This document shows positions 44,461 through 47,579 of a DNA stretch of 64,000 bases, in pieces. A program made the position numbers and the translations under genes. Source of the stretch: Escherichia coli. GTDB lineage: Bacteria > Pseudomonadota > Gammaproteobacteria > Enterobacterales > Enterobacteriaceae. Position 1 is the first letter of the stretch. Each line of letters opens with the position of its first letter. The stretch lies in the NCBI RefSeq assembly GCF_016903815.1, contig NZ_CP069973.1. One strand, given 5' to 3'. The notes under the pieces are model-generated. The model saw nothing but the letters and a program-made list of their open reading frames with translations, was not told the DNA's origin and did no database searches.

Positions 44461-45598
44461 TCAGGCGTCACGCGGTAACCCTTTTTCAATCACCCGAACC
44501 AGACGCTGTTTTTTCGGTAATTGCACTTCGACCACGCACGCATTTCGCCTCTCGATTTGCTGCGCAATCGCCCACGCTATGTGCTCATCGAGAAGTGGGT
44601 GCTCACCTTTACGACTTTCCAGCGCTGTCAAAATCGTTTCATCCCAGGGGGCATTGCCTAATGCTACGGCGATATTACGCAGCCAACGCAGGTGACCTAT
44701 ACGGCGAATCGCCGAACCTTCCGTGACTTTTAAAAACTTCTCTTCACTCCAGGCGAATAACTCAATGAGTTCCGGTGCGTGTAGCGGCTTACGCGGGCTG
44801 AAATCGTCTTCTGTAGTGAGTTGCGAATAGCGATTCCACGGGCAGATAAGCTGGCAGTCATCGCAACCGTAAATACGGTTTCCCATTAACGGTCGCAACT
44901 CTTCCGGGATCGCCCCCTCCAGTTCGATGGTGAGATAAGAGATACAGCGGCGAGCATCGACGGTATATGGCTCGACGATGGCTCCGGTCGGGCAAATCGT
45001 CATACAGGCCACGCATTTACCGCATCCTTCCTCGACTGGTTGATCCACGGGCAGAGGAATATCGACCAGCAATTCGCCTAAAAAGAAGAATGAACCGGCC
45101 TCGCGATTGAGGATAAGTGAGTGCTTACCTGTCCAGCCAAGTCCTGCTTTTTCAGCTAACGGGCGCTCGAGAATAGGCGCAGAATCGACAAACGGTCTAA
45201 AATTCAGCGAAACACAATGTTGCTGAATCATCTCGCCCAGCTTTTTGAGTCGGTTGCGCAGAAGCTTGTGATAGTCACGGCCCAGCGCATAACGGCTAAC
45301 ATAGCCGAGTTTGGGATTTTTCAGCGTGCTGGCAAATGCGGCGTTAGCAGGAAGGTAATTCATCCGCACGCTGATCACGCGCAGCGTACCGGGCAATAAT
45401 TCGTGAGGACGAGCACGCAGCATACCGTGACGCGCCATCCAGTCCATTTCGCCGTGGTATTGTTTGTCCAGCCATGCTTGCAGTTTGGGCTCGGACGCGC
45501 TGAGATCGGTATCGGTAATACCTACCTGCTGAAAGCCCAGTTCCAGCCCCCACTGTTTAATTTTTTGCGCTAACTGATTGAGATCGAGGGGCTCTGAC

Positions 45599-45600
<2 letters not shown>
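44461..45600 (-). CDS. queG: Epoxyqueuosine reductase QueG (YjeS)
   Basis: 379 aa from [30 protein letters not shown]...; 4Fe-4S ferredoxin-type Cys clusters (CGKCVACMTICP, CDDCQLICPWN). Confidence 0.93.

Positions 45601-47579
<1,979 letters not shown>

Follow-up and report, generated by a model that had tools for sequence, protein, structure and literature searches.

Overlapping start codons at the divergent queG/nnr junction of Escherichia coli and candidate promoters within the neighboring coding sequences

Divergent operons of Escherichia coli whose 5' ends overlap and give rise to double-stranded RNA (dsRNA) have been reported by Conway 2014, Lybecker 2014 and Huang 2020, and the queG/nnr pair is itself an entry in this class (S-361 and MS-212). 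Huang 2020 (PMC7373196) lists the pair under the names yjeS/yjeF, assigns it to the 5'-overlap type and places it among the top 20 protein-coding dsRNA clusters captured with p19 in stationary phase. The pair is like the rest of the class in that its divergent transcription start sites (TSSs) are 413 bp apart, each within the other gene, and in that the dsRNA captured with p19 is abundant. In most of the listed examples, however, the leaders overlap and the genes are separated by an intergenic region, whereas queG and nnr have no spacer at all and their coding sequences abut in a single CATG. The arrangement is also comparable to the 'excludon' of Listeria, although we do not file it as one, an excludon being defined by reciprocal repression via a long antisense 5' region.

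We analyzed this junction in a 64,000-nucleotide stretch of E. coli DNA (contig NZ_CP069973.1 of assembly GCF_016903815.1), referred to here as the window, and positions are those of the window unless another record is named. In K-12 MG1655 (NC_000913.3), queG (b4166, 4392928-4394067, minus strand) and nnr (yjeF, b4167, 4394066-4395613, plus strand) have the same junction sequence and the same 2-nt overlap of their start codons, and the window differs from K-12 by 9 substitutions from -400 to +100, none of them at the junction. A 601-base segment around the site is matched in 5,425 of the 5,426 complete E. coli genomes, and in strain 7/2 the identity is 100%. Both the RefSeq/PGAP annotation of strain 7/2 and the curated K-12 record give the long, 515-aa Nnr with the 2-nt overlap. 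The overlapping-start junction is already known: it is present in public annotation and has been explained mechanistically in the literature.

The window reads ...ggctctgaCATGacggaccatacaATGaag... across the junction and is laid out as ...GAGGGGCTCTGA-CATG-ACGGACCATACA-ATG-AAGAAA..., with G45601 as the sole base of the first nnr ATG (ATG1) outside the queG start codon. QueG carries a QueG_DUF1730 domain (PF08331, residues 62-140) and a double 4Fe-4S ferredoxin domain (Fer4_16, PF13484, residues 193-256), in agreement with the RefSeq product name. Nnr has the bifunctional Nnr/YjeF architecture, an N-terminal YjeF_N epimerase domain (PF03853, residues 40-199, E 1.5e-45) fused to a C-terminal Carb_kinase dehydratase domain (PF01256, residues 258-496, E 1.3e-85), and is homologous to the T. 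maritima Tm0922/Nnr structures. The preliminary description had the queG and nnr ATGs overlapping on opposite strands and a second in-frame ATG (ATG2) at 45614 that would give a 510-aa Nnr. Direct reading, the list of open reading frames (ORFs), RefSeq and Pfam bear out the coordinates and gene names, and the ORF list bears out the frame and length of the shorter product. One ATG within five codons is expected by chance in about 8% of cases, and a second in-frame ATG is by itself unremarkable.

The gene order at the locus is orn, three tRNA-Gly genes, yjeV, queG (minus strand) and then nnr-tsaE-amiB (plus strand). The gap between the first and second tRNA-Gly genes (43772-44188) is ∼160 nt here and in strain 7/2 compared to 36 nt in MG1655, and a sub-threshold Rfam match to YrlA at 44030-44168 is probably a tRNA-like artifact across two of the tRNA genes. 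At the other side of the locus, the last 29 nt of nnr (47118-47146) are shared with tsaE, which begins in a different frame, as in the RefSeq annotation; the operon has in this overlap another compact boundary, suggestive of translational coupling.

Table 1. Features at the queG/nnr junction, in window coordinates
Feature	Position	Strand	Remarks
queG CDS (epoxyqueuosine reductase, 379 aa)	44461..45600	-	ATG 45600->45598 (cat on plus strand); ORF list, RefSeq, Pfam
nnr CDS, long form (NAD(P)HX epimerase/dehydratase, 515 aa)	45599..47146	+	from ATG1; ORF list, RefSeq, Pfam
CATG tetranucleotide with both start codons	45598..45601	both	45599-45600 common to both
ATG2, second in-frame ATG of nnr	45614..45616	+	510-aa product; five codons 3' of ATG1; lineage-variable codon 6
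GAGGGG Shine-Dalgarno for nnr ATG1	45586..45591	+	inside queG codons 4-5; each base in 80-81/81 sequences
Block GGTCTAAAATTCAGCG with putative nnr-operon -10 TAAAAT (45198-45203)	45194..45209	+	inside queG codons ∼131-136
Putative queG extended -10 TGgTATACT	45632..45640	-	inside nnr codons 12-14 (AGT ATA CCA)
5' leader of nnr-operon mRNA, 388 nt	45211..45598	+	wholly antisense to queG codons 1-130
queG 5' leader, ∼24 nt	45601..45624	-	U-rich, no recognizable Shine-Dalgarno; antisense to nnr codons 1-9
Region transcribed on both strands (5'-5' overlap), 413 bp	45211..45624	both	contains p19 cluster and MS-212
p19 cluster S-361	45264..45619		U00096.2 4,391,754-4,392,109; Huang 2020 (PMC7373196)
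Lybecker dsRNA MS-212 ("Divergent", 383 bp)	45227..45610		U00096.2 4,391,717-4,392,100; as quoted in PMC7373196

The best overall explanation, to which we assign a probability of about 0.8, is a maximally compacted divergent junction in which queG and nnr begin in one CATG and neither would have an intergenic promoter. The nnr-operon promoter, with TAAAAT as its -10, would lie 0.4 kb inside queG and fire near 45211, and the queG promoter, with its extended -10 in nnr codons 12-14, would fire near 45624. The 5' ends of the two mRNAs would then be antisense to each other over ∼413 nt, and the resulting dsRNA would be cut by RNase III. Translation of Nnr would begin at ATG1, driven by the GAGGGG Shine-Dalgarno (SD) sequence 6 nt upstream, while ATG2 would be a lineage-specific Met codon able to substitute for it, the MTDHT tail lying outside the catalytic fold.

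The TSS coordinates are second-hand, being figures of Conway 2014 as quoted by Huang 2020 in the supplement to PMC7373196. The row quoted there ("P 4391701 ... +", 413 bp) spans 4,391,701-4,392,114 of U00096.2, corresponding to window 45211-45624, and places the TSS of the nnr operon at 4,391,701 on the plus strand, 388 nt inside queG. We read the other end of the row, 4,392,114 on the minus strand (25 nt inside nnr), as the TSS of queG because of analogous rows, among them that of cpxP, in which the end of the overlap is an independently listed minus-strand TSS. Conway 2014 gives the operon as nnr-tsaE-amiB-mutL-miaA-hfq and further genes. For the conversion of coordinates we relied on U00096.2 and NC_000913.3 differing by 1,977 bp in length, and a sequenced read, CAUGACGGACCAUACAAUGAAG, at 4392087-4392109 confirmed it by putting the A of ATG1 at 4,392,089.

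The literature coordinates and the sequence together place the two TSSs for antisense overlap, as in divergent 5'-overlapping transcription units, and the published p19 and Lybecker data document dsRNA from the queG/nnr overlap in vivo. The earlier statement that the two genes leave no intergenic promoter space is correct, with the TSSs at 45211 and 45624 and the conserved -10 boxes placing both promoters within the neighboring coding sequences. Starting nnr at ATG2 would leave just 13 nt between the genes, so the missing promoter space is no argument against the long nnr start.

For comparison, we aligned the window with 80 orthologous loci from different Enterobacteriaceae species, giving 81 sequences. 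One of the six patterns used in the locus search was MTDHTMKK, which may bias the set, and 21 of the loci lack that peptide. The CATG overlap is found in 80 of the 81 sequences, the exception being Salmonella enterica subsp. arizonae with CATT, and it is also found outside the family in Serratia, Erwinia and a third locus (L083). It is therefore not a chance feature of this strain. One further locus (L028, CACSKA010000007.1), labeled Chryseobacterium sp. 18061, has an Enterobacteriaceae-type queG-nnr junction and an Nnr 79% identical to that of E. coli, and this assembly is probably mislabeled or contaminated.

An intact, in-frame ATG1 is found in 76 of the 81 sequences, the exceptions being S. 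enterica subsp. arizonae and four Kosakonia-type species, but this conservation is confounded by the fact that the A and T of ATG1 also belong to the queG start codon. Other features discriminate between the two candidate starts. Pairing with the anti-SD sequence is predicted at -7.2 kcal/mol for ATG1 and at -3.2 kcal/mol for ATG2, which has an SD of 3 bp. Codon 6, the position of ATG2, is ATG in 36 species, GTG in 16 and TTG in 8, and in the other 21 it is a codon that cannot start translation (CTG, CTA, CTT, GAG or ATA). Serratia, Erwinia and L083, each with the CATG overlap, have GAA, CAG or TCG at this codon. Only ATG1 can therefore start Nnr in these species, and its context there does not differ from that in E. 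coli. Thr is encoded by codon 5 in 54 of 77 species, with all four synonymous codons in use, at a position that is upstream of ATG2 and faces the untranslated leader of queG on the opposite strand; this wobble variation is a signature of coding. The N-termini assigned by gene callers in more distant Enterobacterales (MTGHSEK..., MTDHQQN..., MSDQESK...) likewise align with the long form. The preliminary description had made no choice between the two starts. On this pattern the 515-aa start is the likely one for Nnr, and we infer that E. coli itself also starts the protein mainly at ATG1.

Our search for direct mapping of nnr initiation found none: the gene is absent from the Nakahigashi TetRP, Romero dRNA-seq and Fijalkowski supplements, b4167 is not among the entries listed in the TRAINSPOTTER table, and the sole nnr match in the INRI-seq supplement is in a list of antisense off-targets. 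No solved structure of E. coli Nnr exists that would define its N-terminus. A TTG at 45578, the first start-type codon of the open frame, was rejected as a start; it stands immediately after an in-frame TGA and has no SD.

Both ATGs might be used in E. coli, so that one mRNA would give Nnr proteoforms of 515 and 510 aa, a possibility that we consider unlikely though worth keeping in view. Like the genes whose dual-start proteoforms have been mapped by Ribo-RET or N-terminomics, nnr has two in-frame ATGs 15 nt apart, each of which is sufficient in some species, a likeness at the level of sequence and one that concerns an extension of five residues outside the catalytic domain. The predicted structure is weak around both ATGs. 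The SD of ATG2 is poor, however, and a ribosome that starts at ATG1 would have ATG2 within its footprint and so block it. In addition, the MTDHT tail is far upstream of the first Pfam domain, which starts at residue 40, and no functional distinction between the two forms is apparent.

Mean conservation at third codon positions over the 81 sequences is 0.57 in queG and 0.48 in nnr, and it approaches 1.0 in a few discrete blocks. The core at 45565-45611 (codons 1-12 of queG and 1-4 of nnr) is conserved continuously, lacking the usual period-3 pattern, and holds the ribosome-binding regions of both genes. Both RNA strands at the junction fold less stably than dinucleotide shuffles (z of +1.9 and +1.4), as expected of open initiation regions. 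A conserved RNA structure at the junction was accordingly rejected, both strands folding worse than the shuffles and an Rfam search there returning no known RNA family.

This conserved core could also be taken as the mark of a regulatory coupling between the two genes. The 413-bp antisense overlap and the mutually overlapping ribosome-binding regions would then set queG (queuosine tRNA modification) against the nnr-tsaE-amiB-mutL-miaA-hfq operon, each lowering expression of the other by way of co-degradation by RNase III and transcriptional interference, and the conservation of 45565-45611, including that of ACGGACCAT, the nine bases after ATG1, where these are out of the nnr frame, would reflect a switch. 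We regard this as rather improbable, and simple constraints of dual initiation would serve for the same conservation.

Two further stretches of queG are conserved at synonymous positions. In the 81 species, 45115-45136 (codons ∼155-162, residues WTGKHSLI, AAGTGAGTGCTTACC) shows near-complete synonymous conservation; it is partly kept in Serratia (TAGTGAGTGTTTACC) and less so in Erwinia. The block sits 75-96 nt upstream of the nnr-operon TSS, and no promoter-like or known RNA match accounts for it. One guess, and no more than that, is a regulator site serving the nnr promoter. In the 3' part of queG, short runs of unusually conserved third positions are found at 44563-44608, with values of 0.90-0.95 over 4-codon windows.

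The four Kosakonia-type loci (L054, L056, L062 and L063, from Kosakonia cowanii, K. arachidis, K. oryziphila and a metagenome-assembled genome (MAG)) are natural exceptions to the pattern at ATG1. They have a 1-nt insertion between the CAT and the second ATG that puts ATG1 out of frame while keeping the strong SD, and ATG1 opens only an upstream ORF (uORF) of 20-21 codons that overlaps the real nnr start. In these species nnr is intact (503 aa) from ATG2, its sole usable start. They must use ATG2, so ATG2 alone suffices and the five-residue tail is dispensable. Expression of nnr may be throttled in these loci by out-of-frame initiation upstream, which makes them a natural experiment. The bases of ACGGACCAT are conserved even here, out of the nnr frame, and must therefore be constrained by something besides Nnr coding, most simply the queG initiation region. 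Conservation of the MTDHT extension had been put forward in the preliminary description as a check on the nnr start. The MTDH codons are indeed conserved, although Nnr coding accounts for only part of this. Salmonella, with S. enterica subsp. arizonae (L018) and subsp. diarizonae (L016) in the set, differs in another way, reading ATG ATG GAC CAT AAC ATG (MMDHNM), except that subsp. arizonae has ATT as its first codon, so that nnr there starts one codon later and no longer overlaps the queG start codon.

The same data bear on the reading that E. coli Nnr starts only at ATG2, in which case ATG1 would be incidental to the queG start and the conserved leader and the annotation would be five codons too long. 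The retention of ACGGACCAT whatever the nnr frame and the intact nnr of the Kosakonia-type species would fit this reading, as would the AAG AAA directly after ATG2, the greater predicted accessibility of its surroundings (probability of being unpaired 0.73, compared to 0.54 at ATG1) and the presence of a start-type codon at position 6 in 60 of 81 species. We nevertheless hold it to be very unlikely. Position 6 cannot start translation in the 21 species counted above or in Serratia, Erwinia and L083, and the occurrence of M, V, L and I at this position across the set fits a simple hydrophobic preference, with Leu encoded by CTN in 16 species and by TTG in 8. The SD of ATG2 is the weaker one, the context of ATG1 is identical in the species that depend on it, and codon 5 varies at its wobble position as coding sequence does. 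We therefore retain ATG1 as the preferred start.

The -10 boxes of the promoters proposed in the preferred reading were predicted from the sequence by itself, and the TSSs that they give are within 1 nt of those published. At every base, the block GGTCTAAAATTCAGCG inside queG is kept in 78-81 of the 81 species, in contrast to the variable wobble sites on either side, and its TAAAAT imposes the rare Arg codon AGA on queG. From the box, a TSS is predicted at ∼45210, compared to the published 45211. The residues NFRPFVDSAP of QueG are also kept in Serratia, Erwinia and L083, with Arg encoded by CGC or CGA and the TAAAAT box absent. Since NFRP is encoded without TAAAAT outside Enterobacteriaceae, the QueG protein does not need this nucleotide sequence. 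An ATG-initiated ORF of 60 aa (45217-45399, plus strand) begins 6 nt after the nnr TSS, antisense to queG, but is probably spurious; it is not conserved, with a median stop-free length of 14 codons and 60 codons reached in 17 of 81 species.

On the other side of the junction, AGTATACCACA (45632-45642, nnr codons 12-15) is kept in 79-81 of the 81 species, wobble positions included. Its complement is the extended -10 TGgTATACT, which imposes the rare Ile codon ATA on nnr and predicts a TSS at ∼45625, compared to the published 45624. The TG extension of a -10 compensates for a weak -35. TGGTAAACT is found at the same distance upstream of the queG ATG in Serratia, L083 and the vibrio Enterovibrio, in which queG and nnr are divergent with a 23-nt spacer, while Erwinia has GGGTAAACT, the queG hexamer without the TG extension. 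By this comparison the queG box is older than the queG/nnr overlap. The queG leader between TSS and ATG is 47% U and 70% pyrimidine across the 81 species, against a background of 24.5% T, and its anti-SD pairing is weak (-2.7 kcal/mol). A plus-strand TACAAT at 45610-45615 was rejected as a promoter, as it is not conserved and has no -35.

An invariant -10 hexamer precedes each of the two published TSSs by 8 nt, and we infer that the conserved boxes are functional -10 elements. That the boxes are instead a protein or codon-usage constraint or some other element, with the true promoters elsewhere, is most improbable: a generic sigma-70/terminator scan of 45200-46000 gave nothing (it requires a good -35, which both proposed promoters lack), both -35 regions are poor (3/6 matches) and distant Nnr proteins also conserve SIPH/SLPY as a protein motif, but the conserved codons AGA and ATA are rare, the opposite of what codon-usage selection would produce, QueG encodes NFRP without the box outside the family, the published TSSs have the spacing just given from each hexamer, and the queG box has the TG extension for its weak -35.

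The choice of nnr start carries low biological weight, since the two candidate proteins are distinguished by five residues that precede the catalytic fold and that one clade or more does without. In practice, the reference annotation (515 aa, with the 2-nt queG overlap) can stand. The locus is a teaching example of promoters embedded in the coding sequence of a neighbor, where promoter constraint overrides codon choice and fixes AGA and ATA across the family, and it has been documented to give antisense dsRNA at the front of an operon that contains miaA and hfq.
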